Shown piece by piece: positions 1 to 19,217 of a stretch of 64,000 bases of DNA; positions within the stretch are counted from its first letter, which is position 1; each line of letters begins with the position of its first letter. Below the pieces are notes generated by a model, which did not search any database, was not told the origin of the DNA, and saw only the letters and a list, made by a program, of their open reading frames with translations. The translations under genes were made by a program, and so were the position numbers. This DNA comes from Elsinoe ampelina. Its lineage: Eukaryota. The stretch lies in NCBI GenBank assembly GCA_010093995.1, contig ML992507.1:617576-681575 (forward strand), read 5' to 3'.

Positions 1-509
1 ATTGTCGAGATGGAAGGCGAGATGGATCTCAACCCTACAATAGCCAAGAACTTACTTATCATTGTCCTCCAGCGGTTATGTACGAGTCGATTTATTTTGC
101 GTCACAAAAGCCTTGCTCCATACTCACCATGTAAAGCATGGAGTCCTTTCGATTGAAAATGATCGAACGATATCCCAAGAAGCACCACGGAGAACAGAGA
201 TGTGTAACACCGGGTAGTTCCAAGAATAGGCAAACATGTTCTCAGCTGGAAACGGCTCCAAAAGAGCGAGACAGGAGATACAGGGTCAGCTGGATATTTG
301 GAGCGTATTCGATCACTCAAACGGTCCAGGGGTTCCAGTATAGGACAACTATAGATGAACCAAGAATTTTGATCTAGAAGCAAAGGTGGTGGAGCTCGCA
401 GCTACCTCGGAGCTATGATAAGCATACTACACACCCGCCATGCGTCGCCCAGTGCAAGATGGCAACCTTGGTCTTGACAAGAGTCTGAAAAGCTCCCCCT
501 CTGGTCTTA

Positions 510-1208
510 TTACTCTTCGTCGCTCATATCAGAGGATAAAGAGGAGGATTCGTGGCAAAGACCTTCCTGTCTTGCTGTTTCTCGGAGTAAGCCAGCCTCT
601 TCGTAAGTGAGCAGCGGACTGCGAGTTGCTGCTTCCATATCCGCTCGAAGCTGTCGGCGCCTCAAACGATAGAGCTGGATCCGTTCAATCGCATCTGTCA
701 AGCTCTCGTGGTCGGATGAGGAAGCCGAAGATGGAGAATCAGGGTCTCCATAAACCGTGTCAATGTCTCTGATGGTAGTAGCGAATCTCACCAAGAAGTC
801 GTTAAACCTTCTCGCCCTATCCTGTCGTCGTATCTCCCTCTCTACGACCGCGTCTACTGCCTCATTCATTTCTCGAGCACTTGTGACCCTTGTCATAAGG
901 TTTTGACGCTCATCCATCAGTTGCTGATTTGCCGCTTCTTGGTTCCCAGCGTTCTCGTTCTCATCAACATAGAGCAGAGATCGAATGACCTGATCAGGCA
1001 GGGAAAGATGATGAATAGTGATCTCGCCATCGGTATTCAGTGATGCATCTTCGGAGATCCCCAGAGACGCCTCTCTACAGGGATGACACAAGGCGACCGC
1101 TCGCAGATGGACTTCGGTGTTTTGTTGGCAGCTTTCTCCTTCCTCGCAAGGTCTTGTCGCTTGAACGCGATGACGACATGATGGTCGCCAATTGATAGTG
1201 ACACACAT
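510..1208 (-). CDS. MC1: Met-Cys Cys/His-motif (putative Zn-binding) protein, 232 aa, coiled-coil and acidic/Ser-rich tail
   Basis: Starts MCVTINWRPSCRHRVQATRPCEEGESC-x13-CHPC; purine at -3 of the ATG; same Cys spacing as MC3. Confidence 0.8.
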   Translation of the reverse strand: MCVTINWRPSCRHRVQATRPCEEGESCQQNTEVHLRAVALCHPCREASLGISEDASLNTDGEITIHHLSLPDQVIRSLLYVDENENAGNQEAANQQLMDERQNLMTRVTSAREMNEAVDAVVEREIRRQDRARRFNDFLVRFATTIRDIDTVYGDPDSPSSASSSDHESLTDAIERIQLYRLRRRQLRADMEAATRSPLLTYEEAGLLRETARQEGLCHESSSLSSDMSDEE

Positions 1209-1792
1209 CTTTGACCACCGTCGACGATGCTATGGGAATCGCGAAATAGAAGAGTCCAACGCGAGGCAGGATTTGGATGGATCGGACTGAGGTCTCTGCT
1301 TGACTGTCTGCATATTGGAATGGTACTGATAAATATTTCCTCCAAGCAGCCACGACACAGATCCTCGCATCTGTGCGACGCGACAAGTGTCACCATTGAA
1401 GTGCAATGTGTGAGGTTGAGGTATATTTGGCTGGATGAGAATGCTTGGAATTTTGGTTCTGAGAACAACTGTATCACCGATACGTAGGTATTGGATCTCA
1501 TTTCACCAAGTCAGCAAACATGTACGCCAATTTTTGGCGTCAAGTCACAGCTTGTGACCCATACTGACAAGCAAGAAGTACCGATAGGTAACAGGAAGTC
1601 CGCTTGAGGAAAATGGCATTTCCTACACCTTTGATCATGCACGTGAAATCACAACATCTTCGACATCCTGCTGGCCTCGAAGAGAAGCCCTTTCATTCAG
1701 TACTACAATGTTGGAGAAAGCTCGAGTCTAGACAGGAGCTGCGGTAGATATACCATCGTCTCTTTGATTGGCTCAATCATCTCAATACCTCT

Positions 1793-2266
1793 TCATGACT
1801 TTGTCCCAAGTATCACCACATTAGTCGGAGCTTTTGGCTTGCTCAAAGTAATCACTCTCGCGTTCGAGCCATTCCATCTCATTTGGCGACGCTCCGCCGC
1901 TCTATCTCGTCGAATCTTCTGACGAGCCAGCCGCAATTCCTTCTCCTTAGCACGATCTTGCTGGTTCAGAGGGGTACGAACCAAAAAAGATGGTCGAGGT
2001 CTGGTTCCAGAAGTGTTGGCCGGCTTGGTAGCGTTCGAAATGTTTCCTTGTGGTATTTGATAGTGCACGGATGGTGAATTTCTTTTGGAAGTGCTCGTGA
2101 GCTTCTTGGATGGTGCGATATAGCGACAAGTGTTGCACACGCCTTTCTCAAGGATAATCTCCGGACGCTGGACTGTCACTCCATGGTGGCAGAGTGATTG
2201 ACAGCAACTTGCTTCGGGCTTGCCCGAACAACCACAAGCGAACTTTCTTACAAGGATTCGACACAT
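1793..2266 (-). CDS. MC2: Met-Cys motif protein, 157 aa (internal ATG of ORF 1793..2446)
   Basis: MCRILVRKFACGCSGKPEASCCQSLC-x17-CNTC; basic tail RLARQKIRRDRAA nearly identical to MC4. Confidence 0.8.
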   Translation of the reverse strand: MCRILVRKFACGCSGKPEASCCQSLCHHGVTVQRPEIILEKGVCNTCRYIAPSKKLTSTSKRNSPSVHYQIPQGNISNATKPANTSGTRPRPSFLVRTPLNQQDRAKEKELRLARQKIRRDRAAERRQMRWNGSNARVITLSKPKAPTNVVILGTKS

Positions 2267-3042
2267 CGCCGCAAAGAATTTCTGTAGGCTGTTTGAATTG
2301 ATTGAGAGAGATAGGTCCAAGCAGTCTCTAGTGAGAGCTGAGAGCTGATCGAAGGCAAGTGAATGTCTGAGCAGTAACAGATAAGATAGGAAGGGGATTC
2401 TATTCTCCAGAATAGTGGGAGGCTCCCCAGTACCTTTATGTTGCATCTCTCGCAGAATACACGTCAGGTATCACACGTTGCCCTGGCCAACATGCCGCGT
2501 GGTAACACCGATGACCATCAATTGGATTAGTGCGGTCTGATCGACACGAATCTCTCTGATACATCCCTTAGCCCCCATAATCTCGGAGAGACAGGCATCA
2601 CGGTTTGGTTATTCATCTTGAACCACCTGTTTGCTACGAGTGTGATACATACACCCACTGAGTGACCTACCCCGACGGTGACCTACGGTACACAGCATGA
2701 TCGTTGCAGAGACCCGGAATCTAAACGATTTGCCAAATTCTGCTCCCGACGAACTCAGAGTGTTTTGCTGGTCCTGTGTACAAAAACCAAAATAAGCTAA
2801 GTCCAGTCTATGCAACATTGGGTAGATATACTTGGTATTGAGATATCCAAGAACTCCTCAACTATGATTGAGACTTGATGGAAAAGATCAGAATGTAATA
2901 CATGGAAGCCCAAACTCCAGTCAGAAATGGTCCAGTCCGTCTATTGTGCTCGTACGGCGCCTTTGCGACCAACGCCGCTCAATTTTCGGATCGCCATTTG
3001 ACATTTCGTACGCGCTGCGGTTTGACTGCGTTCTTGTTTAGC

Positions 3043-3786
3043 TCACATTCTCAGTCGTTGAGCAGTAGTCATCTTACTCTTGAGATCACCGCAAATGATG
3101 TTGCCGTAAGAGATTCCGGCAGCTGCTGTGAGACCTTCATTGGGAATGGGCGTCCCCCAAGACACGAAAGCTGACAGGTCAAGCTCCGGTGGATCATATG
3201 CCATCGCTAGAGAACAGAGATGCTGACGCCGACATACCGCCAAAGCATTCTTGGATCTCTTGAGTGCGTCTCGGATTTCGAGATCATCCAGGGGCTGACC
3301 TTGGGCCCATTCATGCACATCCCAGCTAATGTCAAGTAACTCCAGGATCTCTTGTGCGGAGTACCGGAAGTTATCGGTGGTTCGCTGAAGAAGCACATGC
3401 ATATCTGGGTGGATAGTGTCATGCTCTCTTGGAAGATAGAGTTGACTGTGTCCGGGCGACCACCGTCTGGAGATGAGTTCCGAGAGTTGAGTGAAAATTA
3501 TGGCTTCACAGCGGTATTGCAATCTCCTAGTTGGAGCAGTGTAGTCGAGCAAATCAACAAGCTGACTGAGTGGAAGTGAAGGATTTACGACAAAGAGGTG
3601 CCCCGAACCGTCGAGGAAGACAGGAGTCGAGTGTGTGGAGGGTGTCACGCGATGACACTCTCTACAGAGTGTCGTGACAGTGATATTGACTTGTTCAGGG
3701 TGTGTGCAGGTATTTTGAGGTGAACAGTGGTGCAGTGAAGAGTAAGTGTGTCCACAAGCCGTCAAAAGTCTGGTGAGTTCGCACAT
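3043..3786 (-). CDS. MC3: Met-Cys motif protein, 247 aa
   Basis: MCELTRLLTACGHTYSSLHHCSPQNTC-x13-CREC; shares an SLP..Q...LL.Y segment with MC1. Confidence 0.8.
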   Translation of the reverse strand: MCELTRLLTACGHTYSSLHHCSPQNTCTHPEQVNITVTTLCRECHRVTPSTHSTPVFLDGSGHLFVVNPSLPLSQLVDLLDYTAPTRRLQYRCEAIIFTQLSELISRRWSPGHSQLYLPREHDTIHPDMHVLLQRTTDNFRYSAQEILELLDISWDVHEWAQGQPLDDLEIRDALKRSKNALAVCRRQHLCSLAMAYDPPELDLSAFVSWGTPIPNEGLTAAAGISYGNIICGDLKSKMTTAQRLRM

Positions 3787-4810
3787 GTCCGGATTCTCAG
3801 GGTTTCAAGAGGGACTGTTCTGACGAATTTGGTCGGTGAAGCTGAAGATTGACCGTCCACTACTCAGAGGCGCGCCATCGTCTTATATTTCTTCAATCTT
3901 ACTGCAGAGTGTTTCGGCCGATGAATCCACCATCAGACTAAAGAACGTACAATATGAGATGATTGGGCTCAAAGGACCATCATGTGGTACTACCTCAAGT
4001 AGAGATATGAATACTTGGCAAATCGACTGGTGGTTCTTCAACGAAGATGCTCTAGAGGATAGCAGCAAACATACCCTGACCACAAGTTAAGGTCTCATCC
4101 GAGGTCTTCCGCTGACTGGTTGGTGAAAACCATCATATCATTGGCTGCTTGATTAACTTTCCCATTGGTACATGTGTCACGCATGCCAGAATGACTACTG
4201 AACCCTCGATTGAATCAGCTTCAATGTTACCGCTTTTAACGACAATAGCAAACATTCTCATTGGTCGACACGACCAAAGATTTACAATAGAAGTTCCGGA
4301 AGTCTAAACTCAAACATACTCCCGGAACTCTTCTGTCTCAATAGAGGTGACCTCGGATGTATTAGATCTGCGGGACTTCGCCCCCGAGAACTTGATGGAT
4401 GCATTGTATCGCGATCAAGTCGGACTCACCCACACCCCTCCTCGCCTCATACTTGGCTCATAACTTACAAAACATTTTGTCAACACAGCTCGTACATGAA
4501 TTGCAAAACACGGTGGCCATACAGTTTTGGCATCTCGAAGAACGACGATGACTTTTCGCGAAGCTGAATATACTTGAAGACTATCTACTTATCTCAGAGT
4601 CCCAAGGGAAGTCCAAATCATCAGCGCTTCGTACGAGCGCTACGTACAATCGCTCAGGAAGAATTGGACCAAGTCACAAGTAGACGACCAGATCATCTTC
4701 TTGGAATTCGAGCGGTCCGATCCTCACGTGCCCGTACGCTACCTACCAACCTTGAATGGCTCTACCCCGGCAGAGCCATTTTGACTTCCCTGATTTACTC
4801 TAAGACGTCT

Positions 4811-5191
4811 TCATGCCGCTCTGTCCCTTGAGATCTTCCGTCGAGCCAGCCGCGCTTCCAGTCGCCTTACGTGCTCTTCGCGGTTGAGCACCGGTTTTGT
4901 ATTCATAACAGACTTGCTGATTTTGGTGGATGATGCTTCTATGTTTGGACCAATATGACCGGTTACTAGCTGTTGTTTTTGCGGACCAGAAGCTGAATCG
5001 ATGGATAGTGACAACGGTGCGGGCCGACAATGGGTAAAGATCGCATGCTTGCAACCATCACAGGGGCTGCTCGTCGGTACCACCTGTACTTGTTGGAGCC
5101 TCACGCCGTGGAAGCACAGTGATGAGCAGATACTCTGCTTGGGCCGGCTTACGCAGCCGCAGCTGTGTTTCTCCCTGTAAGTCTGGCACAT
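4811..5191 (-). CDS. MC4: Met-Cys motif protein, 126 aa, paralog of MC2, possibly C-terminally truncated
   Basis: MCQTYREKHSCGCVSRPKQSICSSLC-x17-CDGC...RLARRKISRDRAA then TGA. Confidence 0.78.
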   Translation of the reverse strand: MCQTYREKHSCGCVSRPKQSICSSLCFHGVRLQQVQVVPTSSPCDGCKHAIFTHCRPAPLSLSIDSASGPQKQQLVTGHIGPNIEASSTKISKSVMNTKPVLNREEHVRRLEARLARRKISRDRAA

Positions 5192-5969
5192 AATGATGAT
5201 GAGTCTGCTACAACTGGTCACTCTGATTGAGCTGCCATCTTCTTCTGTACTCACAGTGAAGTCAATTGTCAAAATGGTATCAAAGGGTCCTGCGAGGGAG
5301 GTCAAGCCCGAGTTCTTGAGGAATTGATGGTCAGAAGTGCGCTTCATACGATCTTTCATCTTATAGAACGCTTTAAGGAGCGTCGGAGACTTTGCCTGTG
5401 GATCTCATTGCATTATGTTTGTCGCACAAGGTCACCGTTGTCAAGCGATATCTTTGATTTGTAGGTTCATATGACTTCGTCATCGTCATGAGGTGGGCCG
5501 TTTTCATATATACACCGAGCGGATACCAACGATAGACATACTGCGATTGGACCATTTTAATTTGTGTGACTCATGGTATCACCTAAAACTGTGTTCAGAT
5601 TTCCAAGCGCCCATGACAAAATCGCATGTACTACTCATGCATATTCGCGTGAAGGTTGCACGAAGAGTGGCTCCAGCTTTACCAGTCTGAGCTGCGTTAT
5701 ATTGGGACTGACCGTAAAGTCATTGCCGACATAGCTGCCGTTCCGATGGATACCTGCTAGATCTGACTGTAATTCGTCATGACAGTCCGAGGTTTTCAGA
5801 ATGCACTTTCAGCACAAGGGAAGACTTAGTCACCAGATACGATGAATGAATTGTCCCCGATACGGTGGATGAGCCGATTTCGAATTGTCCACTCGGGTTC
5901 TTGTTTTCGTGCTTTGCTTCAGCTATGATACTAGTTAGCTTGATGCGAGACTCCACGGCGATTCGGGTC

Positions 5970-6242
5970 CTACTTCTTCACAACTTTCACCTTGGTGAAG
6001 AACCGTTTCCACAGAGATGGCTTTTCCCTTTCCAATATCTGTAACCTGGGTCGTCGTTGATTTCGTTGCTTGATGTTCTGGTCGAGTACTCTGGCACACT
6101 GATCACAATTGCCCTCGTGAACTTCCAGACTCTTTCTAGGTTCATCTTTCTCTGCGATACAATTCTCAGGAGCCAGGCATGGTATGTTGAACGACCAGTA
6201 GCATTCGCACCCTTGGTAAGTATGCATGCGCTGGGTGCACAT
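5970..6242 (-). CDS. MC5: Met-Cys motif protein, 90 aa
   Basis: MCTQRMHTYQGCECYWSFNIPCLAPENC...CDQC, basic C-terminus. Confidence 0.78.
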   Translation of the reverse strand: MCTQRMHTYQGCECYWSFNIPCLAPENCIAEKDEPRKSLEVHEGNCDQCARVLDQNIKQRNQRRPRLQILEREKPSLWKRFFTKVKVVKK

Positions 6243-6662
6243 CTTGAGGTATCACGACCGATGTCAATGAAGAATGAAAGGCATTTTTTCCGCATTATAT
6301 CGTCTGATCGGGTCCAGGCGATGGTGCTTGCCACGTAGAGCCTCAGCATGGACCGCCCTCATCAATGTCAGGACTGCGTTTTGGGTTCGACATTGGCCAG
6401 TATAGTTTGTGTCACTGGGCGAAGCGAGGAGGATTGTGGAGACAAATGAGCCAGAATCTGGAGAAAACGACCAGTCTCTGGATTTGATTGCTGCTGGTCA
6501 AGCCTATGATACCACGCTAACGCTATTGAGCTTGCAATGCGCTGGTCGATGATTTACAAAGTATGCCATCCATTCCCCTGCTTCTCATCTGTGTGTCACC
6601 TTCAGCTTTGTTCTTGGGTCATTGAAAACATGTCAGCATACCCGTGGCCAGTCCTATCAGTT

Positions 6663-6830
6663 TTAGTCTGCCAATCGGTGGCTGCACACGGGACATCGTG
6701 TCTGGTAGACTGTCCTAATCCGTTGCCAGGTGTTCGGATCGAGATTATGTTGACGAGGATCCGAGCAGTAGACCGTCAGTGTTCGGTGATGATGACCGCA
6801 TCGCCAGAAGTACATGATGAAGTAACACAT
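6663..6830 (-). CDS. MC6: minimal Met-Cys motif microprotein, 55 aa (absent from the supplied ORF track)
   Basis: Hand translation: MCYFIMYFWRCGHHHRTLTVYCSDPRQHNLDPNTWQRIRTVYQTRCPVCSHRLAD*; C2/C11/H13/C22/H28 spacing identical to neighbour MC7. Confidence 0.75.
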   Translation of the reverse strand: MCYFIMYFWRCGHHHRTLTVYCSDPRQHNLDPNTWQRIRTVYQTRCPVCSHRLAD

Positions 6831-7136
6831 TGCTTGGCGCCTGGTGATGAGAAGCCCAATGTTGTTCGCTATTGAAAGGCGAGCAGAATGCTGCTCCGGG
6901 GCTACGTGGATCTATATGTCCTCATAGACGCTGCAATGCGAGTTGCGGCCGAATGAATGCCGTTCTTGCATTCAAAAAGTCGGCAGTCTACAATGTCAGC
7001 ACAGATGTGTGGCAGGGAGAACGCCCATGTGTAATGATCGTGGTACAGAATGCTGTAAGACTCTCGTTGCAATCTCTTTTGTGATCAGCTGTAGAGAAAG
7101 TATGGAGCTTCGTTTGACAAAACCCAGTCAAAGCCT

Positions 7137-7547
7137 TTAGCGCTTTGATGTGCGCTTGGAGCTTCCCCCAACGCTCCTACTGCGTCTACTCAATCCTCTG
7201 CCTGTCCGCTCACTCCCTGCTCCACGTTCACCACAGGCAGGATCGATGATGTATCGGCGCTGCAACTCTCTCTCCTGTAATTCCTGTTGCTGGGTCTGAG
7301 CAGCTGCTTGTTGTTGCCAGGCGGCCACTCGTGCTGCGGCTGCTTGGCGTTGTCTTTCTGCTTCGGCTTGTTCCGCAGCACGTTGCGCCATCTGAACCCT
7401 GAACTGACAGTGTGCATTACAGCCGTAGTTCCTCTGCTCGATGATTGGCGTGGCGTCGTTTTCGTGATCTGGCCAGGTGCGGCAGTACTTCTTCTCAAGA
7501 GTAAAGGTGTGACCACAAGCAAAGTGGAGGTATAGTTGTTGACACAT
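7137..7547 (-). CDS. MC7: Met-Cys motif protein, 136 aa, Gln/Ala-rich helical and basic tail
   Basis: MCQQLYLHFACGHTFTLEKKYCRTWPDH...CNAHC. Confidence 0.8.
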   Translation of the reverse strand: MCQQLYLHFACGHTFTLEKKYCRTWPDHENDATPIIEQRNYGCNAHCQFRVQMAQRAAEQAEAERQRQAAAARVAAWQQQAAAQTQQQELQERELQRRYIIDPACGERGAGSERTGRGLSRRSRSVGGSSKRTSKR

Positions 7548-8167
7548 TGTTGCAATAGTGACTCGATCTAGCGCAAATTATGTTATGAGTCCTCTGGGGA
7601 TCATGATCGTGCTGGCTTTTGTATTGCAACAGTTTTCGGTAGTGATCTATGCCAATGTAGGGAATTTGTCATTGTGATCAGTGCAACAACAAACCACATT
7701 TGACCTCTGCGCTTCGTGATCAAATGAATAACCTGTAGAGCACTCGTAACGGACTACTCAAGAGCGAGGCCACCGTTCCAGAGCTTCGAGACACGAGCCC
7801 GAAACGCCTAGTCAAGACCACAGTCATAGCATTGTGGACGGGACAGTCAATGAATCTCGATCCGCTGGAAACTCACTACCACCGATCTTCATATTGTGCT
7901 CAGTTGCGGACATGATAGAGAGAGGGAACTAGATCCGAGGTTTTGACAACGAGACGAGTGGGAGAATGATGGGTTGAAATTGGAGCTTGGCAGGTGAGGT
8001 TGAAAGGAACGGGAAGCAGGGTCCACCGCGGCAACGTGACGTGTTCGACTGGTCACTTTTTTCCACCCATCCTTCTTTCTTCAACGTTCATACCTCCGAT
8101 CCCAATCCTTTGCTGGCAAGCTTTTAGGAAAAATCGTGGTGCCAGCACATGGTCCGGCGCCTGCGCG

Positions 8168-8830
8168 ATGCTTGTACGACCACGCGTGGATGATGACCTG
8201 CCGGCTCTCGCGGAAGTCCTCCGTTGTGTCCACGCAGAGAGTGGATACCCGGTCCAAGGAATCGACGACCCGATCAAATTCCTATCAGAGGAATCTCTTG
8301 TCAAAGCTTGGGTCCTGACTACACCGGACGATCAACCAATTGGTCAGTGCGTGGTTTCGGAGGTGCACCAACGAGATGAGAGACTACTTAAATGGGAACA
8401 ATATCTCTGGAGATCGAACGATCCAGGTGGATCAGGCGGCGAGGTCACCAAATCGAAGTATCTTGCGCTCGGACGATTGTTCGTAGATCCTCTAGCGCAT
8501 GGTCAAGGAGGCGGTGAGAAATTGGTGCAACAAGCAGTCGATTGGGCGGGTGGTGTGCTCATGCGGCGGCTGATATTGAACGTGCTTCTGAAAGACCCAG
8601 CTGCCATCGCACTGTATCGCAAGCTTGGTTGGACCGAGTATGGTGAAGGTACACTCACGAACGCGCAAGGTGAAAAGTACAAGCAAGTATACTTCATCGG
8701 CCCTGTTCCAAGAAGAATCTCGTCAGCGGCATCACAGACGGTGGCTATGGCTACAAACGGCAGTGATCATTGGGACGAGATTGAGAAGGTCAGGTCTGCT
8801 ACCAAGAAGAAGCCGAGCGGCAAAGTCTAA
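8168..8830 (+). CDS. GNAT-family N-acetyltransferase, 220 aa
   Basis: Acetyl-CoA motif A RLFVDPLAHGQGGGEKL and motif B AIALYRKLGW; start taken at ATG 8168 (MLVRPR). Confidence 0.85.
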   Translation: MLVRPRVDDDLPALAEVLRCVHAESGYPVQGIDDPIKFLSEESLVKAWVLTTPDDQPIGQCVVSEVHQRDERLLKWEQYLWRSNDPGGSGGEVTKSKYLALGRLFVDPLAHGQGGGEKLVQQAVDWAGGVLMRRLILNVLLKDPAAIALYRKLGWTEYGEGTLTNAQGEKYKQVYFIGPVPRRISSAASQTVAMATNGSDHWDEIEKVRSATKKKPSGKV

Positions 8831-9351
8831 GATGGCTGTACGAGTTGCATCCGGATCCCAGGCGGCAGATCTTCACGCTGCACAGCTTCCGCCTCTAACA
8901 GCTCGACCCAAAGGTCCAGCTCGGCGGTGTCTGCGAAGGTGCCGATCTCATCTCGATTGCCAGGACCATTCACATCCCACCCAGCCCTGGACACCATATT
9001 GTTCCTGACGAAAGCCCTCAGCCACGGTCTGCTCCTCGCAATACCCTCATCTCGAAAATGGTTCCTTATCCACTCCCATCTCAAGGTCTCATCGATCGGG
9101 ATCGCTGCGGTGATTCGTTGAATCAGACTTGCTTCAGGTCGATCTCGACTGATAACTCCGTCGATGTTCTCGCCGTTGACGCACCAGCCACATGCGGATG
9201 TGTCATCCAGAAGTACGATCTCCACGTGCTCTCTATATTCGCGGACGAACTGATTGATGGGATCTGGCACAGCTCGCTCGCTACAATTCTCGAACACGTC
9301 GTATGGATGGATCCTACATCCGCCGAATCGTACAAAGGTGTGCTTGCACAT
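8827..9351 (-). CDS. MC8: Met-Cys motif protein with shared C-terminal helical domain, 174 aa
   Basis: MCKHTFVRFGGCRIHPYDVFENC...CGWC; C-terminal RPWLRAFV...GPGNRDE...ELDLWVELL...EDLP. Its stop overlaps the GNAT stop. Confidence 0.8.
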   Translation of the reverse strand: MCKHTFVRFGGCRIHPYDVFENCSERAVPDPINQFVREYREHVEIVLLDDTSACGWCVNGENIDGVISRDRPEASLIQRITAAIPIDETLRWEWIRNHFRDEGIARSRPWLRAFVRNNMVSRAGWDVNGPGNRDEIGTFADTAELDLWVELLEAEAVQREDLPPGIRMQLVQPS

Positions 9352-9642
9352 TGCTTTCAAGTGTTTGCAGGATTTGCTTCGTGATGGAGGATTGGTTAGG
9401 ACTGAAGCGGAATTACCTGTGGTCAGCACACTGATCGGACAGGTGCAGTCCTTTTTTCGTCCACTGTACAGTGCTTGACGAAGCTGCGGCTATGCAGCTA
9501 TACCTCGTTGTGTCAACTTCCGACAGCGTCTCGAGGACCAATGGGAACACCGCTTACACACAGGCTTCATTGTGGAGGACAATCGAGGCATTCTGTATTG
9601 TCCCGGACTAAACATTATCGATTTAAGGCACACAGAATACGA

Positions 9643-10506
9643 CTATCTGCGCTGACGGCGATGCATATTGCCGGATGCTCTTGCTTCTCTCGCCAATCTG
9701 AGATCTCGGAACCTGATAATTTCTGCAGCGATGTCCGGCATCTCATCCCGGATGAAGTTGTCCAACTTCTCGCGGGACACCAAGACATTGCGCAGCCTCT
9801 CCTGAACCCAAGTCGGCGATTGATTGTACCTTGCCTTCCTGTCGTATATCAAAGAGACCCAGACATCGTACTCGTAATCATCACGTAGCTCCGTCAACCC
9901 GCTCGTCCTATGGGGATTCCGCTGTCGAATGTCTTCTTGCAAGAATCGATCAAGCCATCTCCGAAAGTCAACCATCGACATCGCATCGAACTGAGCTTCG
10001 ATGATGCTCTGGCGGGATTGGAAGCTTGACAAGATGATTGGAGATCGCTGGTCGAATGTGACTGGACCGTGAGCTTCCGATACTGGCGTTCTGCTACTGG
10101 AGATTGCCGGGAGTCTGCTGCCATAGGCCCAAGACTGAGTAGTTGGTGTACTGGTCGTCAAGGAGCGGCCTTGTGCATCCATGAAGGATCTCGTTGCTGA
10201 CCTTTCGGGATCGCGTGCTTCGGTCGGTTGATTTGCCAGGGACACAAGCCACATGCTTGCCTGGCAATCTCGACAGAGGTCGGCTCCTTCGATATCTTTG
10301 GGATGGGTACAGACAGGAACGACCGATCCCGATCGTTGATCGATCGCTGTTCTACAGCTGGAGCATGGGTCCGAAAGGTCTATGTGCCTGACATGAATCC
10401 GCCCTGCAGGATGTCTCTGGCAGTAGTCCGACTGCAAACATGGGCGGTATTCCGACCGAGGGTGGCGGCGACATTGATCTTGGAAGATGATGTCCGTGAA
10501 ACACAT
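9643..10506 (-). CDS. MC9: Met-Cys motif protein with extra CxxC and shared C-terminal domain, 287 aa
   Basis: MCFTDIIFQDQCRRHPRSEYRPCLQSDYC...DPCSSC, second CTH...CRDC; FRRWLDRFL...EYDVWVSLI...SPTWVQERL. Confidence 0.8.
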   Translation of the reverse strand: MCFTDIIFQDQCRRHPRSEYRPCLQSDYCQRHPAGRIHVRHIDLSDPCSSCRTAIDQRSGSVVPVCTHPKDIEGADLCRDCQASMWLVSLANQPTEARDPERSATRSFMDAQGRSLTTSTPTTQSWAYGSRLPAISSSRTPVSEAHGPVTFDQRSPIILSSFQSRQSIIEAQFDAMSMVDFRRWLDRFLQEDIRQRNPHRTSGLTELRDDYEYDVWVSLIYDRKARYNQSPTWVQERLRNVLVSREKLDNFIRDEMPDIAAEIIRFRDLRLAREARASGNMHRRQRR

Positions 10507-11107
10507 GACGTTGTACGGCTCAACTTGCAACACTGAGATTTGGAATTGCCAACCAGGATCGTGGCAATACCGGTATTTATGGTTATAATGGTGCCTGTCG
10601 ATATTGCCAATAGAACGGCCAGTCCCGTCATTCAAGTTGTACAAGCGCCTTCTTGGTGTCACAGGACAGGTCGGTGCCGCAGGGATGCCATTGCAGCTGT
10701 GGATCAAAATGGAACTGGGAGCACCATAGACCGGTCGTCGGTAGATGACAGGTCGTGTCCGAACCACGTCAGCAACCTAGTAGCGACTAGTACGTACGCT
10801 ACTTTGGCAGTCTCCGATCATCGCATCTTCCTTTCAACGACCAATGGCCTGTACGGTATTCAAGCGACGGGGCGGTCCGCAATCCCATCATACTCCGGGA
10901 CGACAGCGGACAGATTGAGATTCTGTGACTATCATATCAATGCAAGGATCGTCAATTGGACTTCGATATCATAGTATGACCACTTGAGCCTGCTCAGGTA
11001 TATATGCATTATCTACGCTGTCTATAACTCATTCCACGGCTGCAAGCAAGATCGCCTGGCACCGGCCGTCAGTACATTACGACTGCCAAAAAGTCCTCGT
11101 CTACCTC

Positions 11108-11389
11108 TCATGCTTCGATCAAGAACTGGCGGATGTTCCTTGGTGCATCCTTGCGCCTGACCCTTCCGGACCGGATGAGTGAATTCCAGAACCTGATCTC
11201 CATCTCTCTGGCCATGAGGTCTGCATCCGACACAGTTGGCGGGCCCATGGGATGACCAATACTGGCCAGAGTGGCTTGTCGAAGCATTTGGTGAAGCCAC
11301 ATGCTGAATTGCTCCAGTGGCATGGTGAGGAAAGCTCTGTTCACCGCCGCGGCCAGAATGTCGGACCGAGGGGGAGGTTGTGGTGGCAT
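11108..11389 (-). CDS. Stand-alone copy of the array's C-terminal helical domain (no Met-Cys motif), ~93 aa
   Basis: MPPQPPP...MPLEQFSMWLHQML...GPPTVSDAD...EIRFWNSLIR...KDAPRNIRQFL aligns by eye with the tails of MC8-MC12; start uncertain. Confidence 0.65.
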   Translation of the reverse strand: MPPQPPPRSDILAAAVNRAFLTMPLEQFSMWLHQMLRQATLASIGHPMGPPTVSDADLMAREMEIRFWNSLIRSGRVRRKDAPRNIRQFLIEA

Positions 11390-11831
11390 TGTCACAAGGT
11401 AACGAGAGTGACAATCGAGAGGGATGAATGTCGTGCTGCGAGACCGATGATCACGGGGTCGTTGACTGAGCAGAATCACGGTAGTGTGAAGTTGATGGTT
11501 GAATGACTTCTACCGTCTTTTATCCCATGTCCCATGTTGAGGACCAAGCCCAGGTGAGGAATGTGAGCCAGATACCTTACGCTCGGACTCTGTGATGCCC
11601 TCATCTCGCAACAAGATAACAACTCGACTGTGGTGCGACGGACCGCATCCTATCCATTCACAGCGGTCTGACAATCGCCTCCCAAAACACGGCAATTGAC
11701 CACAATCTTCATTCAAGCGCCTGCACGGTCAATCTTGATATTTGGTAGAGTCCAATCGTTGAGTCGTTGAGATACCATCACTTGTCAACGAGACCGGATT
11801 GACTTTGATATCTATATCTACTGGATCTTGC

Positions 11832-12323
11832 TCACCCCTGTGGCGCCTCAACCTGATGCAACCTCGTTTGCACCCATTCCGGTGCATCTTCCTTCTTGTA
11901 CTTTCTCAGGTACACAACGACACTCCAGAACCATACCTCTAATTGCTTTCCCATGCGGTCCACTTCGTCCAGATTCCCTGGTCCATCTTCACGCCCCATC
12001 CTGGTCCTTGCATCAGTGTGGACAAAGTACGCCAAAAATGTCCGGAAGCCATGCGGGTCCATCCGGTTCGCCGCATCCATGATGACTCGTTTACGGTCCT
12101 CTTCTGACAGGGGTTGCTTCCCTGTACCTGGATTGTACTGCGGGTAGCCGGGTTGGCCTTGAAAGGACACGGCGCAAATCAAGCAGGGGTCGTCGGAGAT
12201 TTTCTCTACTTTCTCCACTCTGTCCCAGTTCTTGCGGCATTGATGAGAGTCCGGACATGCTTTGTAGTCATTGTCAGGATGTCGTCGACAGCCGTCGAAG
12301 TAGGTGTTGATGATCATGCACAT
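11832..12323 (-). CDS. MC10: Met-Cys motif protein with shared C-terminal domain, 163 aa
   Basis: MCMIINTYFDGCRRHPDNDYKACPDSHQC...DDPCLIC; FRTFLAYFV...GPGNLDE...EVWFWSVVV...EDAPEWVQTRL. Confidence 0.82.
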   Translation of the reverse strand: MCMIINTYFDGCRRHPDNDYKACPDSHQCRKNWDRVEKVEKISDDPCLICAVSFQGQPGYPQYNPGTGKQPLSEEDRKRVIMDAANRMDPHGFRTFLAYFVHTDARTRMGREDGPGNLDEVDRMGKQLEVWFWSVVVYLRKYKKEDAPEWVQTRLHQVEAPQG

Positions 12324-12900
12324 GCTGCTCCTGGTTGATGGGCGACTGAAAGTTGCTCCAGATCGACGGCGGCTGCGGAGCACGCACATACATTGCTATT
12401 CAAAGTGCAAATCATCATCATGGTTCCTCCTGAATAGTACAAAGAATGGAGGCAATGGCTGGCAGATGATCTTGCGACACGGCGCCTGAGGACAAAGCAA
12501 ACGGCGAGTGTAACACAATTTCGGCTCGGATACTTGCATGCTAGACCGTCACATGTTGCGTCCTAAGTCCACCAGCCACACAATCGATGAGAATCGACGC
12601 TGGGCGCTTATGTCTGAACGTAATCCCTTTCGGCTATCACTGATGACCATCGACGTGTTCATCCACACCACTCGATCTCCATTGATGAAGGTGGCGTTTT
12701 GGGCATCTTCTGTGTAACCACAGCCCCTCCACTGCCCACTGTCATACAGAGCACAAACAAATCCAGAACAGCAGGCATCCTTTCGTCGCAATCCAACAAG
12801 GATTCAGGAACTTCATCGCCACCGCTCTGACAAGCATCCCTACCCCCAAGAGCATCGCCGACCAGCATCCCATCCGCCACAACAAGCAAAGCTACCCACC

Positions 12901-13443
12901 ATGTGCATCCGCCACTACATCACCCACCTCTGCAACCACCAATACGCCGGCATCCAGCAATGCTCCCAGCACGCCCAATGCGCGCATCTCGCCAGCATCA
13001 ACCCCACTATGATCCCCACCCGCTACCTCGTCGACCCCAACGTCTGCCCCACCTGCCTCTCGGCCTGGGGCGTCACAGGCGAACACACTAGCACTGCGTT
13101 CGAAGAACAGACCCCCCTGGAAAACATGCAGGAGCGGGACGCCTTCATCGACTCCATCCGCATGCAGATGCAGGCATCCGGGAATTTCGGGACGTGGTTG
13201 CACGATTATCTGCTTAGTGAGACGATGCGGTTGGTGGGGACGGAGTACACGACGTTGGACGCGGCGACGTCGGCGGCGAGTGTGCAGGAGTTTCAGTATT
13301 GGGCGGAGTTGGTCAGGCGGGATCCGGTGCGGTATCACGAGGCGCCAGAGTGGGTGCAGAGGAGGTTGAGGGAGGAGCAGGCTGTGAGGGAGAGGGAGAG
13401 GATTTTGAGGAGTAGGCAGGGCAGGGGAAGGGGGCGGTCATAG
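12901..13443 (+). CDS. MC11: Met-Cys motif protein with shared C-terminal domain, 180 aa (only plus-strand member)
   Basis: CCACCATG start; MCIRHYITHLCNHQYAGIQQCSQHAQC...CPTC; NFGTWLHDYL...QEFQYWAELV...EAPEWVQRRL. Confidence 0.82.
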   Translation: MCIRHYITHLCNHQYAGIQQCSQHAQCAHLASINPTMIPTRYLVDPNVCPTCLSAWGVTGEHTSTAFEEQTPLENMQERDAFIDSIRMQMQASGNFGTWLHDYLLSETMRLVGTEYTTLDAATSAASVQEFQYWAELVRRDPVRYHEAPEWVQRRLREEQAVRERERILRSRQGRGRGRS

Positions 13444-13582
13444 GTTCCAGTGAGGCGATGTGCGACGGCTGAGGAACTGCGGGTTGCTGGGGTGTCAAGA
13501 GTAGTGGTTTGCTGGATCGTACTTGGCTACTGGAATTGCATCCAGCTTTCCGCTCATCCCCATCTTCTTCCCTGGGAGCACC

Positions 13583-14143
13583 TCATCGCCTCCGACCCCG
13601 CTGCTGTTCCTGTCCCACCTGCTGACCCACCAGTGCTCTGTACGCTCGCATCCGCGCACGAACCCAGTCCGGCGCATCCTCCAACCTACTGGGATCCGCC
13701 TGGATCACCTGCTGTCAGCAGCCCAGCTCCTGAGTCTGTGCGTACTGGTTCGCTTCCTCCACATTCCTCGGCCCGCCTATGAGACCAATCCGAAGCAAGC
13801 TCTCGTTCCTGCAGAAGGTCCACAGCCAAGATCGGAAGTTTGCCGGGTCCAGTCGTTTTCTCGTCTGCTCGATGAGGGCGAAGCGCTCGGCGGCGGAGAG
13901 CGCTCTGGGTCCGATCACAGCTGGAGGCGTACCGGGTGTGTTGGCTGGTACGGATGGCTGAGTGGCTGTTGGGTTGCCGGTGCAGGTCGGGCAGGGCGTT
14001 TGGCTTTGCAGCGTGCGGATGGGGATTCGAGCGGTGTTGGAGGATTCGTTGGCGTAGCAGACTCGCCAGTTGAGACAGTTTTGTGTGACGATGGAGGGGT
14101 GCTCGGAGCAGGCGAAGAAGTAGGTGGCGAATTTGATGCACAT
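13583..14143 (-). pseudogene. MC12: Met-Cys motif gene with in-frame TGA (13715-13717) at a conserved Trp; nonsense allele or recoded gene
   Basis: MCIKFATYFFACSEHPSIVTQNCLNWRVC...CPTC...QELGC*QQVIQADPSRLEDAPDWVRARM...GRRR*; homology continues 43 codons past the TGA. Confidence 0.75.
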
Positions 14144-14616
14144 CTCGCTGGGAGTGAGATCGTGTGAGCAGGGATGAGCATTGTGGGAGCTATTATCTTT
14201 TTGGTTATAGGAGCGATACTGTTGGATGGGGTTGTTCATGTGGATCGGATGCAGAGAGCTGCAGAACAAAGAAGTTGCGTACTACCTTGGGCGTCTAGCT
14301 TTGGTGCAACCATAACTGTCGCTCGGTCGAGATGGTGTGTGTTACATTGTGACGCTTCATTTACAGTATGCCATTCTGGTGGTTTAGTCACCGCAGAGCC
14401 AATGCAACTAGGGCGAGATGCTGGAAAAACGGGCCCACCGGAACGAATGATGAGACGGAAGGAAGCTGTGTGCCATTGGATTCACGTGCTGTAGACTGGT
14501 CGATCTTCTCAAGAGACGTCAACTCAGAAGTAAATGCCGTTCGTGGTAGGCCGAATGATCAGTTGTATCCCCGTAGTACTGATCGATGTGCCCAATCGTC
14601 CTGGTATATGATCAAT

Positions 14617-16407
14617 CTAGTAGATATATCGGAAGTTCAAGTTCTCTCGATCCGTCAAGTCCTCAAATGCAGTCCTGTCATGACCTTCGACCTTTCTTCT
14701 CTCCATCAGCTCATCCGCAGTCAAGCCTTCGTGACCTTGAATCCTATCTCTTCGCTTGTTCTCCTTTGACAGCATAAACCAGAAGATGCATATCAAGACT
14801 ACCTCTAGCAGATGACTGACGATCATGGACCAGATTCCGAGATCGTATCGAGGTGCCTGAGATGCAAGATAGAAGAAGGGACCGATGATATTGCCAGTAC
14901 AGTAGCCGAGGAAGAGCACGGCGTTGGTCACTACCTTCTTAGTGTGTCCAGCAGTATTGGCTGTTTGTAGCGAGAGCATCAGGACGAATGCGGCATTATA
15001 TGGTCCAGTAAGTAGATAGCAGATGTACCTACCAGCATGTTGTGACGCCGGGACAAATCGAAGACCAAAAGCTCCAGCAATGTTGGGGCAGAGAAACAGG
15101 AGCACGAACTTGGTGCGGTTGTTATTGGGGAATCTATCGTTCAGGAAGACACACAGTCCAATCGACAAAGCAATGAAGGCTCCATAGGGAGCTTGCATCA
15201 CCGCTGCGAGCAATGGGTCGTTGAAAATGCCACGGACGATGAGAGTGCCGAAGTTGGAAATTCCGCCGTTTGGAGCTGTAGGAAAGTCAGCAGAGCGTTC
15301 TTGGTGAAAGGGGCAGGGTAACGTACTATTGCAGACTGTCCCGAGGAGATAGAAGAGGTAGATCTTCGGGTCTCTGAAGGCTTCCCAGACTTGGTAAAGC
15401 TTGAGCTGCTTATTCTCCACACCGGTCTGGTTGTCCTTGAGGCGAATGACAACGATTCGCTTCTCATGGTCAGTGAGGAACTTGGCAGTAACAGGACTAT
15501 CTGGCATGAGCCACATGATGACTGCTCCCCAGATAGTGCAAAGCGCTCCAATTATGATAAACTCGAACTTCCAAGCGGGGATGGAGGCCTTGATGTTGCC
15601 GATACCGTAGCCGAGCAAACCTCCAACGGCGATGCCAAATCCATTGCCGAGATACCACATGCCCATTCGCACTGGTTGTTGACGTCTGGTATACCACATT
15701 TGAGTGATCAGCATGAAAGCTGGATCCGCACATGCTTCTGCGGCTCCAGAGAGAAATCGAAGCACGGCGAGGGTAGCAAATGAATTGCAAGCGGCTTGAA
15801 GCATCAAAAAGATTCCCCAGAGGATGATATTGAAACCAAGGTATCTAATCATATCAGTATTGGCTGACATGAGGGTCATTGAAGGTAGAAACCTACTTGC
15901 CCAGTGGAAACTTCTGCATCAAGAAGTTGGTCGGAAAAGCCCAAGCAATGAAACCGAAGTAGAAGATGCTGCTAAGCCAGCTGTATTGGCTGCCGGTGAG
16001 TGACAGATCTTCCCTGATACAGTATTAGACAGTGCTGGGGAGATTACGATATTTCTCATACCTAATGCCATAGAGCGCAGCATAAGAAAGTGTCGTCTTG
16101 TCTATCTACGAGCTGTCAGTAGGGTTCCAGGGTAGAAGATGAGCCTTCATACGTAGAAGAAGATGTAGTTGACTGCGATCAAGGGAATGATGAACCAGTC
16201 GATCTTCTTAATGATCCTTTTCTCCTCTTCTGGATCGACCTCCATATTGAAGTCGTGGTTCTCGAACAGCTTCATCGCAACATCTGCCGACTTGGTATGG
16301 CCCTTTGCGCCGGCCGCCAACGCAATTGCAGCGACGTCTTTGGGCACCTCATTGTGTTCCACCTCTTGCTTCGCCTTTGCACTTTCCAGGCTCCTGGTGT
16401 CAGACAT
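14617..16407 (-). CDS. MFS transporter, allantoate permease (DAL5-like, ACS family); 5 exons
   Basis: Exons 16407-16153, 16105-16062, 16013-15897, 15844-15327, 15275-14617 with GT-AG introns; motifs KIDW, DKTTLSYAA, QYSWLSSIFY, WYTRRQQ, AGHTKK, FEDLTDRENLNFRY. Confidence 0.92.
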
Positions 16408-17007
16408 GTTGACCTTCTGCTCAGCTCTGAACACGTAGGGAAAGATAGAGATAAAAGCAGAAGCAGTAGAAAGAGGTCCAGCCCGTCATCGCGAGTGAAT
16501 CCAAAGACCGACACGGAGAAAGGATTCGGCCGACTTACCTCCTACGTAGTCGATCGTCACGGCCACCATACAAACAAGCAAGCAACATCAAGCATTGAGG
16601 CGCGACGAGCGACGACGGGAATAATGAGGTGCGGGGAACGAGGGGAAAGCTTGTGGGGAAATAAGCTCCGAACCGCCACGAGTGCGGCTCAATTTCCTTT
16701 TCCGAAACAATTCCGAAATGCTAGGCTTGGCGTCGGAAATCCCCTCCTCGGTCCCAATCCGTATTCTCGTCAACCTCCTACCTTATGCTCTTGATACCAA
16801 GTGAGAGCTATACAGATACTCAGGCTGATACGTTTGCTAGATGAAGCATCCGCGATGATGATACCCTCCTGTGCATGCGAATTGCTTGAAAAAGGTTTCA
16901 AGTGCAAAGCCTGTTCAAGCACATCGATCAATCACTCCGTCGGATCATTTCATTCTAGACCACGCAGTATCGAACCTTTTCTATCAACAGTTGCAGAGTG
17001 AAAATCT

Positions 17008-17412
17008 CTATCTCGCCGGCACAGGCGCCGATCCCGGTTCCGGTCCTGGCGGTGGACCCGGGTCAACCCCAGGAGGCATCGGCGCCCCCGGCGGACCATC
17101 AAAGTCATCATCGTCGTCAGACGATGATTCATCCCCCTTCTTCTTCTTTCCCTTTTTGTCTCTCTTGTCTTTGCTGCTCGACCTCGATTTGTGCCTTGTC
17201 CAGACCCTCTTCTTATCCTTCTTCTTCTGACTCTTCTTCTCCTTCTTGCGAGCAGCAGCACAAGCCTCGCATCGTCCTTCTGTTCTGATGATGCCAGCGC
17301 AGTGCCAGTTTAAGGAGCAGCGATGGCCTTGGAGTGCGTGGCGGGGGCAGTACCGCACGATGTCTTCGATGCAGAGGCAGTGCTCGTAAAGCTTGCGGTA
17401 GTAGTGGCACAT
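17008..17412 (-). CDS. MC13: Met-Cys motif protein, 134 aa, Lys-rich/acidic/Pro-Gly tail
   Basis: MCHYYRKLYEHCLCIEDIVRYCPRHALQGHRC...CEAC. Confidence 0.8.
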   Translation of the reverse strand: MCHYYRKLYEHCLCIEDIVRYCPRHALQGHRCSLNWHCAGIIRTEGRCEACAAARKKEKKSQKKKDKKRVWTRHKSRSSSKDKRDKKGKKKKGDESSSDDDDDFDGPPGAPMPPGVDPGPPPGPEPGSAPVPAR

Positions 17413-17761
17413 GGTTGGGCAGAGGGAGGACGAAAGCCGTGTGTGATGTCGTGTGAACGTTGCTTCGGTGTGCTCTGGTTATCTCTGGTCTGAGGAGTGT
17501 CTTGTTGACTGCCTCCGAGCAGATGCAACGATACATCCTGCATTTATGGCTACCACAGTCCCTGAATGACAGGGTATGCTTCATCGTGGTAGAGAGCCAA
17601 TCCATTTTCACGGCTTCCCGGTAGGTGATGCTGGAAGGAGAGTTGGAAGAATGAGCGGCTACGACTTTCAGATTGTCCTGCATACTGGTGCCATCTTCTG
17701 CGTACAAACAAGAACCAACATCATGCAGATCCACAACACAACAATCTTATTCCGTGCCACC

Positions 17762-18091
17762 TCAAATCCTTGATTTCTTGTACTTCCGTCCTTCTTCGCC
17801 CTCCCCCTTAGCTTTCCGCTTCACCTTCTCTCCCGTCACAGCCACGGAATCCTGCTCACCCCGTTTCGCTTGTTCCGCCTTCCTAGCCGCCCTCGCCTCA
17901 TCTTTCGCAGTAGTACAAGCCGGGCATCTCGCCGCGAACCACTTCACGGATCCCGGCCATTCTTTGTCTTTGGGTATGGCCATACGTCGCTCTCGACATG
18001 GCTTGCCTTCTCTTTGGGCTAGCTCGCAGGGAAGTACTCGGCTGGAGGTGTGGGTGCATTTGGTGAAGCAGTGGAGGATTGCCTGGCACAT
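17762..18091 (-). CDS. MC14: Met-Cys motif protein, 109 aa, basic tail
   Basis: MCQAILHCFTKCTHTSSRVLPCELAQREGKPC...CPAC. Confidence 0.8.
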   Translation of the reverse strand: MCQAILHCFTKCTHTSSRVLPCELAQREGKPCRERRMAIPKDKEWPGSVKWFAARCPACTTAKDEARAARKAEQAKRGEQDSVAVTGEKVKRKAKGEGEEGRKYKKSRI

Positions 18092-18476
18092 GGCTGGGCC
18101 GGGGATGGACAATGTTTCGTGGAGGGAGGCTTATGTCTGTGAGGGAGTTTCAAGAGATCAACTGGTCGCGTAAATTCACAAGTGATGTAACGATTTTGTG
18201 CAATAGTGATCAGGGCTACCGTGTGCACGATTGGTGACGGTGTGCCGTGCCAGCTGGTAAGCGCTCAACTGTGCAGTCAATCACAGCATTTCACTGGCTT
18301 GCAAATAGTCGAGTTAATTTTCGACACGTCCGGGATGTCTTTACGGTGTCCTGCAATAGATTCATAGTCTATAGGTCAAGGCATTGTGCGAGATGTATGT
18401 AGAGAAAAGCACACAGTGGTGCTGCGTACAAATTGTAGCTATCGAAATCTTGATCAATGTGGGAGGGAAGAATCGA

Positions 18477-19217
18477 TCATCGCAGGGGAGTTCTCCCAGC
18501 TGGACCATAGCCTACCGACGACAGCTTCGACGTGTTTGCCATGGTCTTGAAGCTTGGCGTACGTCCAGATGGAGGATCTGGCGCACGAGGTGGACCGCCT
18601 CCTCCGTCACTTCCTGGTGCGGTACTGGGGCCGTCATCCTCGTCGTCTCCTCCACCATCACTTCCAGAACTCTCTTCAGAATCTTCTCCTAAGTCTTCCT
18701 CGGAATCCTCCGAGCTGCTCGAGGAGGTACTCGGAGAGCTGCTTTCACTCGATGAAACTGTTTCGGGTGACTTTGGTCGCCTAATGAAAGTCGTTTGGCT
18801 GAGTAGCCGGGCATGTTGCGGGTCGTTAGAGCTGCCCTCACCAGTGTCTCCTCGCGGATAAATCCTCCTAGTCACCATCTGGAACGAGACATGCCGGTAG
18901 TTCTCATCGTATCCTGCGTTCTCTCGTAACGAAGCTTGTCGGGCATAAGATCCCCTCTGAGACGGCACTGTTGCGTGGTCCGGCCAGACAGCATCTTTAG
19001 CAGTCTTCATCGCCCTGCCAAGTCGTTTGCAACTACTCTCCTTGCCCCTCCTCCGACAACGACGACATGATCCTTGCACTTGAACTTGATCACCCGCAGA
19101 ACCTGAAAAGAAAGGTAGAGCACAGTCCCTCCCTGATCTTCGTGTTCTCGAGCATCGTTCAATCTTGGTCTTTGTATGGTGACAGCCAGTTCGAGTCTTC
19201 ACTATTCTGCGGCACAT
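18477..19217 (-). CDS. MC15: Met-Cys motif protein, 246 aa, Arg-rich then Ser/acidic disordered tail
   Basis: MCRRIVKTRTGCHHTKTKIERCSRTRRSGRDC...CRRC. Confidence 0.8.
   Translation of the reverse strand: MCRRIVKTRTGCHHTKTKIERCSRTRRSGRDCALPFFSGSAGDQVQVQGSCRRCRRRGKESSCKRLGRAMKTAKDAVWPDHATVPSQRGSYARQASLRENAGYDENYRHVSFQMVTRRIYPRGDTGEGSSNDPQHARLLSQTTFIRRPKSPETVSSSESSSPSTSSSSSEDSEEDLGEDSEESSGSDGGGDDEDDGPSTAPGSDGGGGPPRAPDPPSGRTPSFKTMANTSKLSSVGYGPAGRTPLR

Follow-up and report, generated by a model that had tools for sequence, protein, structure and literature searches.

The left end of the window, meaning the whole 64,000-nucleotide stretch of DNA from the grapevine anthracnose fungus Elsinoe ampelina analysed here (contig ML992507.1, positions 617,576 to 681,575), harbors a tandem array of 15 small open reading frames (ORFs), designated MC1 to MC15 (Table 1). 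All of them start with Met-Cys and share a Cys/His-rich N-terminal segment, referred to as the head, which is followed by tails of several kinds. They span 18.7 kb, and translation from each ATG gives products of 55–287 amino acids (aa). The 15 ATG-TGY starts, the common minus-strand orientation of 14 ORFs (MC11 being the sole plus-strand member) and a purine at position -3 of every start (8 A and 7 G; chance 0.5^15 = 3e-5) had been listed in the initial annotation, and all were confirmed by translation. Most of the 15 look like real genes. They constitute a real, paralogous and strongly diverged family, in which a constant Cys/His head is joined to differing tails.

The occurrence of the Met-Cys head pattern in the array is far beyond chance. 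A six-frame scan of the 64 kb with the pattern C-x8-9-C-x1-2-[HC]-x6-8-C...C-x2-3-C, in which Met was not demanded, returned 16 matches, namely the 15 heads and one internal register in MC13, and none elsewhere; the residue before the first Cys was Met in 15/15 heads. Likewise, of the 28 Met-Cys ORFs in the window that are 50 aa or longer, the 15 with the head pattern all lie within 1–19.3 kb, with 0/9 among those of 19.3–64 kb. In 11 of the 15, no in-frame ATG precedes that of Met-Cys, whereas MC2, MC4, MC10 and MC12 have in-frame ATGs upstream. No additional fragments were found in the window by tblastn with all members and orthologues, and no convincing common promoter motif came out of k-mer enrichment over the 400 nt preceding each start, with a mostly coding background.

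Table 1. Members of the Met-Cys array and other features of the window, in window coordinates
Feature	Position	Strand	ATG	Product or content	RNA contigs	Public protein	Elsinoe orthologue (identity; head Cys kept)
MC1	510..1208	-	1208	232 aa; head C2, C11, H13, C21, C27, C41, C44; acidic helical tail	X1 478-791, 3' part	P0006, identical	
MC2	1793..2266	-	2266	157 aa; C-G-C head; basic tail; MC4 paralogue; in-frame ATG at -60 codons		neither start form present	
MC3	3043..3786	-	3786	247 aa; C-G-H head; unique tail		exact sequence not present	
MC4	4811..5191	-	5191	126 aa; C-G-C head; basic tail			
MC5	5970..6242	-	6242	90 aa; C-E-C head; basic tail		not found	
MC6	6663..6830	-	6830	55 aa; head alone	X1 6561-6866, full ORF		
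MC7	7137..7547	-	7547	136 aa; C-G-H head ending Cx3C; Gln/Ala-rich helical basic tail	X1 6859-7939, full ORF		
GNAT acetyltransferase gene	8168-8830	+		embedded in array; convergent with MC8, stops overlapping by 4 nt			
MC8	8827..9351	-	9351	174 aa; head without fifth Cys; common helical tail	two studies		
MC9	9643..10506	-	10506	287 aa; head; second Cys cluster (residues 48-82); common helical tail	two studies	P0009, identical	E. batatas P0002 (92%; 6/6)
Headless remnant	11108..11389	-		93-aa ORF; common helical tail only			
MC10	11832..12323	-	12323	163 aa; head; common helical tail	X1 8103-14742	P0012, 185 aa, from upstream ATG at 12389 (12324-12389), itself Met-Cys, 22 codons before head	E. 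batatas P0011 (90%; 6/6); E. fawcettii P0004 (72%; 6/6)
MC11	12901..13443	+	12901	180 aa; C-N-H head; common helical tail		within P0003 (329 aa)	
MC12	13583..14143	-	14143	142-aa ORF (13715-14143) ending at TGA; same frame open for 43 further codons (13586-13714); orthologue's stop at 13583-13585			E. batatas P0001, 186 aa (92% overall; all)
MFS transporter gene	14617-16407	-		embedded in array; four short introns	joints confirm introns		
MC13	17008..17412	-	17412	134 aa; C-L-C head; tail Lys-rich, then acidic/Pro-rich			
MC14	17762..18091	-	18091	109 aa; C-T-H head; Lys/Glu-rich tail			E. batatas P0005 (76%; all)
MC15	18477..19217	-	19217	246 aa; C-H-H head; Ser/Asp/Glu-rich tail; right end of array	X1 18631-18863, part	P0007, identical	
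N run	31083-31173			90 N; assembly gap or masking, in gene-dense surroundings			
Patatin, NPHP3_N/NACHT and ankyrin ORF pieces	48438-53492	-		neighbouring pieces with Pfam matches			

In a MAFFT alignment of the heads, M1, C2, C11, C21, C49 and C52 (MC11 numbering) are invariant at a mean column identity of 27%, in agreement with the constant but diverged head described in the initial annotation. Each head contains 5–8 Cys and 1–6 His within 60 residues, and the whole proteins contain 5–10 Cys. Most of the Cys falls in the first 60 residues, for instance 8/8 in both MC2 and MC4 and 6/7 in MC1.

The tails form distinct groups, as had also been claimed. MC8–MC12 and a headless remnant located between MC9 and MC10 have in common a domain roughly 90 residues long, in which F-R-x-W-L, W and A-P-E-W-V motifs are conserved and for which four helices are predicted in the MC10 model (pLDDT, the predicted local distance difference test, about 84). 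The remnant matches the tails of MC8, MC10 and MC11 (BLASTP E=2e-5 to 5e-7), and a three-frame reading of 11100-11835 revealed no Met-Cys head upstream of it in any frame. MC2 and MC4 are similar along their full length (E=2e-19, 32% identity) and have a basic tail in common. The tail of MC13 resembles that of MC15 (E=1e-7), and the MC13–MC15 tails are of low complexity, rich in K/R and in D/E/S. The isoelectric points are 11–12 in the tails of MC2, MC4, MC5 and MC7 and about 5 in those of MC1, MC8 and MC15. Pairwise BLASTP among members ranges from E=2e-19 down to undetectable. Tail swapping and divergence are indistinguishable here because the head-only tree has 0/12 well-supported inner branches, and the earlier description of the tails as swappable is left unsupported. 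A crude Kyte-Doolittle proxy found no signal-peptide-like core in 15/15 proteins (maximum 9-residue mean 1.46 in the first 30 residues), as the initial annotation had stated for signal peptides, and no transmembrane-like 19-mer in 15/15 (maximum 1.02).

The AlphaFold2 model of the head, obtained from the 15-row alignment, reached a pLDDT of 78.5, with strands at residues 2–8, 14–20 and 40–44 and a helix at 50–55. In this model C11 and H13 are placed in the hairpin turn, C49 and C52 at the start of the helix, and Cys2 facing Cys21 at the hairpin's open end. The head is thereby predicted to be a three-stranded sheet with a short helix, which would be compatible with one or two zinc sites. The same topology was repeated in the full-length model of MC10, together with the four tail helices. 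For this model the best Foldseek match had E 0.31, and the best VIA match (Z 5.8) was on the helical tail, in the noise range for helical bundles. A prediction of MC10 in two copies with four Zn scored 0.00 and speaks neither for nor against a homodimer.

Judged from its sequence and predicted fold, the head appears to be a Cys/His module matching no described protein family. An hmmscan of all 15 proteins against Pfam-A (E<=1) placed no zinc-finger family at its gathering score, including RING, PHD, LIM, GATA, C2H2, Zn2Cys6, TAZ, copper-fist and CSL. The closest Pfam rows were DZR_2 (13.4 bits, cut-off 27) and IBR_2 (11.9 bits, cut-off 27), which match the second Cys cluster of MC9 and not the head. 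This cluster, which follows the MC9 head and reads C-x2-C ... C-x-H ... C-x2-C, is an observation in its own right, with sub-threshold matches to double-zinc-ribbon and IBR models. A search of the head against PDB sequences gave 0 matches at E<=10, and that of its model against PDB folds gave nothing significant (Foldseek best E 0.16, VIA-align best Z 3.5). The earlier assertion that the spacing does not fit RING, PHD, LIM, GATA, C2H2 or Zn2Cys6 is upheld by these Pfam and PDB searches, and the profile and fold checks it proposed led to no characterised domain.

A HMMER profile search of 1.84 billion representative proteins (E<=0.001) recovered 8 clusters, comprising 7 from Elsinoe and P0008, a protein that is 37% identical to MC12 and carries both head and tail; three of the hits are identical to window products. 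In a word-indexed protein search, MC11 as the only query found no homologue, the head-and-tail alignment A2 found only P0004, P0011 and P0003, and the head alignment A1 at E<=10 found only P0002, P0011, P0003 and P0006; this search overlooked rows of its own query alignment and tells little of taxonomic range. Scans of metagenome contigs with alignment A3 and with P0008 revealed no relative. The ESM Atlas offered weak leads in the form of Ascomycota clusters lacking Pfam matches, with scores of 0.90 (MC11) and 0.79 (MC9). One neighbour of MC11 there bears the automatic name 'TAZ-type', to which Pfam gives no support. The family is so far detectable only in Elsinoe and the source of P0008, and the statement of the initial annotation that similar proteins occur in ascomycetes found no support beyond these ESM Atlas neighbours at 0.90 or below. 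This protein-database range is a lower bound, because small intronless ORFs of such kind are under-annotated. No description of such a family was found in the full-text literature, subscription journals and supplements being outside its scope, and in an E. ampelina review (PMC8295512) the terms cysteine, zinc and tandem occur 0 times.

Transcription was assessed from the contigs of four runs (X1–X4, two studies) over 1-20000, none recorded as RNA, their RNA nature being judged from splice joints. All four CT..AC introns of the MFS gene embedded in the array are bridged by contigs from X1, X3 and X4, and one of the four by X2 contigs; a GT..AG intron at 19884-19935 is bridged by contigs from X2 and X3. 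Spliced RNA is thus present in the runs. Genomic DNA origin is disfavoured because the cover is patchy and not uniform. Contigs free of joints lie over 9/15 ORFs, namely MC1 (3' part), MC6, MC7, MC8–MC12 and MC15 (part), with MC8, MC9 and MC12 covered in both studies. The lack of introns noticed from the sequence is borne out by the contigs over MC6–MC12, which show no splice joints as against four introns in the MFS gene. The highest depth of the stretch belongs to an unspliced X1 contig of 6,640 nt (8103-14742), which encompasses the GNAT gene, MC8, MC9, the remnant, MC10, MC11 and MC12. As it crosses genes of both strands, overlapping or read-through transcripts are suggested in the densest part of the array. 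The contig-free regions 1335-6003 (MC2–MC4 and the last 34 bases of MC5) and 16676-18009 (MC13 and most of MC14) are to be taken as a blank, not as silence, and the rest of MC5 (6004-6242) falls in a bin whose sole listed contig begins at 6561.

Public annotation covers the array poorly. Searches of the public protein collection recovered only 5/15 products: MC1, MC9 and MC15 exactly, MC10 in a longer form, and MC11 within a 329-aa model, P0003. The other 10/15 ORFs were not found there, with boundaries tried. In P0003, MC11 is spliced via an intron onto an ORF antisense to MC12. This public gene model looks wrong, because neither the RNA contigs over 13400-13840 nor the 6.6-kb contig has a joint at that intron.

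Four members have orthologues in other Elsinoe species (Table 1). Head Cys residues are conserved in all five window–orthologue pairs (6/6 or 7/7). MC10 is 163 aa long in three species with no indel, and its orthologues in the two other species begin at the head Met-Cys. MC14 and P0005 are identical at 56/60 head positions and at 27/49 of the remainder (Fisher p=3e-6). The one-to-one orthologues imply that the duplications predate the Elsinoe species splits. They must be old also because the members show no DNA-level repeats apart from one match of 45 nt at 78% identity in the MC2/MC4 tails. The E. batatas locus tags of the orthologues (5991, 6372, 6452 and 6519, with 6490 for the GNAT neighbour) are non-consecutive on one 1.92-Mb contig, the positional meaning of such tags being unsure.

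Turnover within the array is also evident. At the site where the intact E. batatas orthologue P0001 reads Y-W, MC12 of the window reads C-stop (TGA), the conserved Trp being replaced. The stop is covered by contig X3 13400-13840, whose sole differing letter is at 13572. In X2, X3 and X4, which represent a second strain, a single-nucleotide polymorphism (SNP) at 9117 (G>A) converts CGA to TGA, that is, R79 of MC8 to a stop. The other SNPs within MC ORFs of this strain are MC8 R69Q and MC9 F162S and S45P, the last being the E. batatas state; a fifth SNP, at 13572, is located past the MC12 stop defined by the orthologue and falls in non-coding sequence. With its old duplications, truncated MC12, MC8 nonsense allele and headless remnant, the array is a birth-and-death tandem family, as had been proposed.

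Outside the array, the genes of the window are ordinary fungal core genes. Based on their Pfam matches, the pieces at 48438-53492 together look like one fungal NLR-type gene (patatin-NACHT-ANK).

The reading favoured here, at a probability of roughly 0.55, is that the array represents an old, Elsinoe-detected tandem family of small intronless intracellular proteins, in which one or two zinc ions are most likely held by a Cys/His head starting from the initiator Met, and which may serve as small zinc-stabilised adaptors or regulators. The module would comprise the first 45–60 residues. In site 1, a C-x(1-2)-[H/C] knuckle in the first hairpin turn would pair in a treble-clef-like manner with the C-x2(3)-C where the short helix begins. 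In site 2, Cys2 at the start of strand 1 would adjoin Cys21 at the end of strand 2 and, together with a fifth Cys or His, staple the N-terminus. The head may then act as a constant docking or nucleic-acid-binding module, whereas the output would vary from paralogue to paralogue with the tail, be it the four-helix domain, a strongly basic stretch or an acidic one of Ser/Asp/Glu. The setting is most plausibly nuclear, as suggested by tails of basic and acidic character. The family would evolve through duplicates that diverge deeply and are occasionally lost. What we infer from these features is that the heads bind metal, which ligands belong to which site, where the proteins reside and the adaptor or regulator role of heads and tails, and small intracellular zinc-stabilised adaptors or regulators are a best guess. 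The initial annotation went further in speaking of a gene system, to which no observation lends joint action, and the conflict or allorecognition role it envisaged is speculation.

Several observations weigh against this reading. For the fold, pLDDT exceeded 70 in just 2/5 AlphaFold2 models, the proposal of two metal sites per head derives from predicted secondary-structure positions, and the MC8 head has no fifth ligand. For the genes, a codon-usage score referenced to the housekeeping genes of the window favours the ORF frame weakly overall and does not favour it in MC2, MC4 and MC6. The RNA contigs are unstranded and merge neighbours, and thus report a transcribed region and not the sense strand or mRNA ends of each ORF. 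For constraint, the head is conserved equally to the remainder, not better, in the other three members with orthologues. Moreover, MC12 is truncated in both strains, MC8 carries its nonsense allele in the second, and 4/4 SNPs within MC ORFs change the protein with 0 synonymous. Some array members may therefore be decaying.

Taken to its end, such decay would turn the array mostly into a graveyard, with one or a few working genes (e.g., MC9 and MC10) among transcribed, functionless or decaying duplicates whose ORFs last because they are short. The stop at the conserved Trp of MC12, the MC8 allele, the remnant, the uniformly non-synonymous SNPs, the weak or absent codon bias of MC2, MC4 and MC6 and the 10/15 ORFs not found in the public collection with the boundaries tried all fit this view. 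However, the paralogues are at DNA saturation, and 15/15 nevertheless retain Met-Cys, four other invariant Cys and open frames of 55–287 aa; neutral decay over such time would have destroyed both frames and Cys. The full-length similarity of MC2 and MC4 at 32% identity and the head-specific constraint in the MC14 orthologue point the same way, and a graveyard is considered unlikely.

A bolder version of the zinc-adaptor reading deserves mention as a long shot. The head could be a new class of zinc finger that can work nowhere but at the very start of a protein, its N-terminal Cys being a metal or redox ligand. In Elsinoe, this finger could have been diversified in an ancient array into nuclear regulators or factors of intragenomic conflict, with the metal or redox state of that Cys controlling their stability or activity, and most of them would be absent from annotation.

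The abundance of Cys and His in each head, along with the MFS transporter gene inside the array, may instead hint at metal-buffering or Fe-S proteins, either metallothionein-like or cluster carriers, possibly tied to that transporter. Such a function is quite improbable, as the Cys residues are confined to the heads and followed by long tails of 50–230 residues without Cys, unlike metallothioneins, the ligand spacing is fixed as in a structural site, and the connection to the MFS gene is one of adjacency.

A role of the N-terminal Cys itself was also considered. Methionine aminopeptidase removes Met before Cys, and the exposed Cys could be oxidised, act as an N-degron or form a bidentate metal ligand, so that Met-Cys would be the functional core of redox-, oxygen- or NO-responsive proteins. 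In favour of this are the Met before the first Cys in 15/15 heads and the fact that, according to PMC11773813, Cys/Arg N-degron substrates in plants and animals are defined by a Met-Cys N-terminus. Cys2, however, directly precedes a predicted beta-strand and behaves as the other invariant ligands do, and no consensus resembling the plant ERF-VII one follows it. Additionally, in budding yeast a Cys at the N-terminus is not known to destabilise proteins, and fungi are not known to have an N-terminal cysteine oxidase. Hence this reading is held to be very improbable. Least credible of all are unconventionally secreted effectors. Small, Cys-rich, fast-diverging, clustered and lineage-restricted proteins of a crop pathogen would suit such a role, but those of the array have no signal-peptide-like hydrophobic region (by the crude 1.46 proxy given above), a mixed Cys/His spacing with C-x2-C at a helix start that is typical of intracellular zinc sites, and strongly basic or acidic low-complexity tails that are not effector-like.

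Should the head prove to be a metal-binding fold, the zinc-finger catalogue would gain a Cys/His module that has not been described before and is obligatorily N-terminal, and the array would provide a compact natural series of 15 variants for probing the tolerance of the fold. Furthermore, the array exposes a blind spot of annotation, with 10/15 small intronless genes unseen among the public proteins of a crop pathogen and one model fused to antisense sequence. Such families may be systematically under-counted.

Among known systems, the predicted head would resemble treble-clef and zinc-ribbon modules in having a putative metal knuckle in a beta-hairpin and a C-x2-C at the start of a short helix. 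Of solved structures, the nearest found is PerR/Fur (PDB 2fe3) with its Zn(Cys)4 structural-site domain, which is the top match for both Foldseek (E 0.16) and VIA-align (Z 3.5, root-mean-square deviation 5.4, 53 residues), far from significance. The head differs from it in offering 7–8 candidate ligands instead of 4, in always starting from Met1 and in being eukaryotic, and the two are without sequence similarity. Metallothioneins have dense C-x-C and C-x2-C through most of a short protein, whereas the Cys of the array lies nearly all in the first 60 residues and the tails are Cys-poor. The obligatory Met-Cys start (15/15) is shared with Met-Cys N-degron substrates such as plant ERF-VII and animal RGS4/5. 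Those substrates are degraded in dependence on oxidation and arginylation, with a disordered N-terminus exposing the Cys as the degradation signal, whereas in the array this residue begins a predicted beta-strand and co-varies with the other candidate ligands. The KRAB- and ZAD-zinc-finger clusters of animals are tandem arrays shaped by duplication, divergence and loss, in which a constant effector domain is joined to variable C2H2 arrays. The present array is analogous in its mode of evolution, but its constant part is the finger-like head and its variable part the tail; there is no homology. The copper-fist of Ace1, Mac1 and Amt1 (PF00649) is a fungal zinc module of about 40 residues, known only at the extreme N-terminus and followed by variable C-terminal regions, with the ligand order C-x2-C-x8-C-x-H. 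The heads of the array differ in ligand order, PF00649 matches none of the 15 proteins at E<=1, and copper-fist genes are not known to form tandem arrays. Like the copper-fist, the head is fungal and stands at the extreme N-terminus ahead of variable regions.

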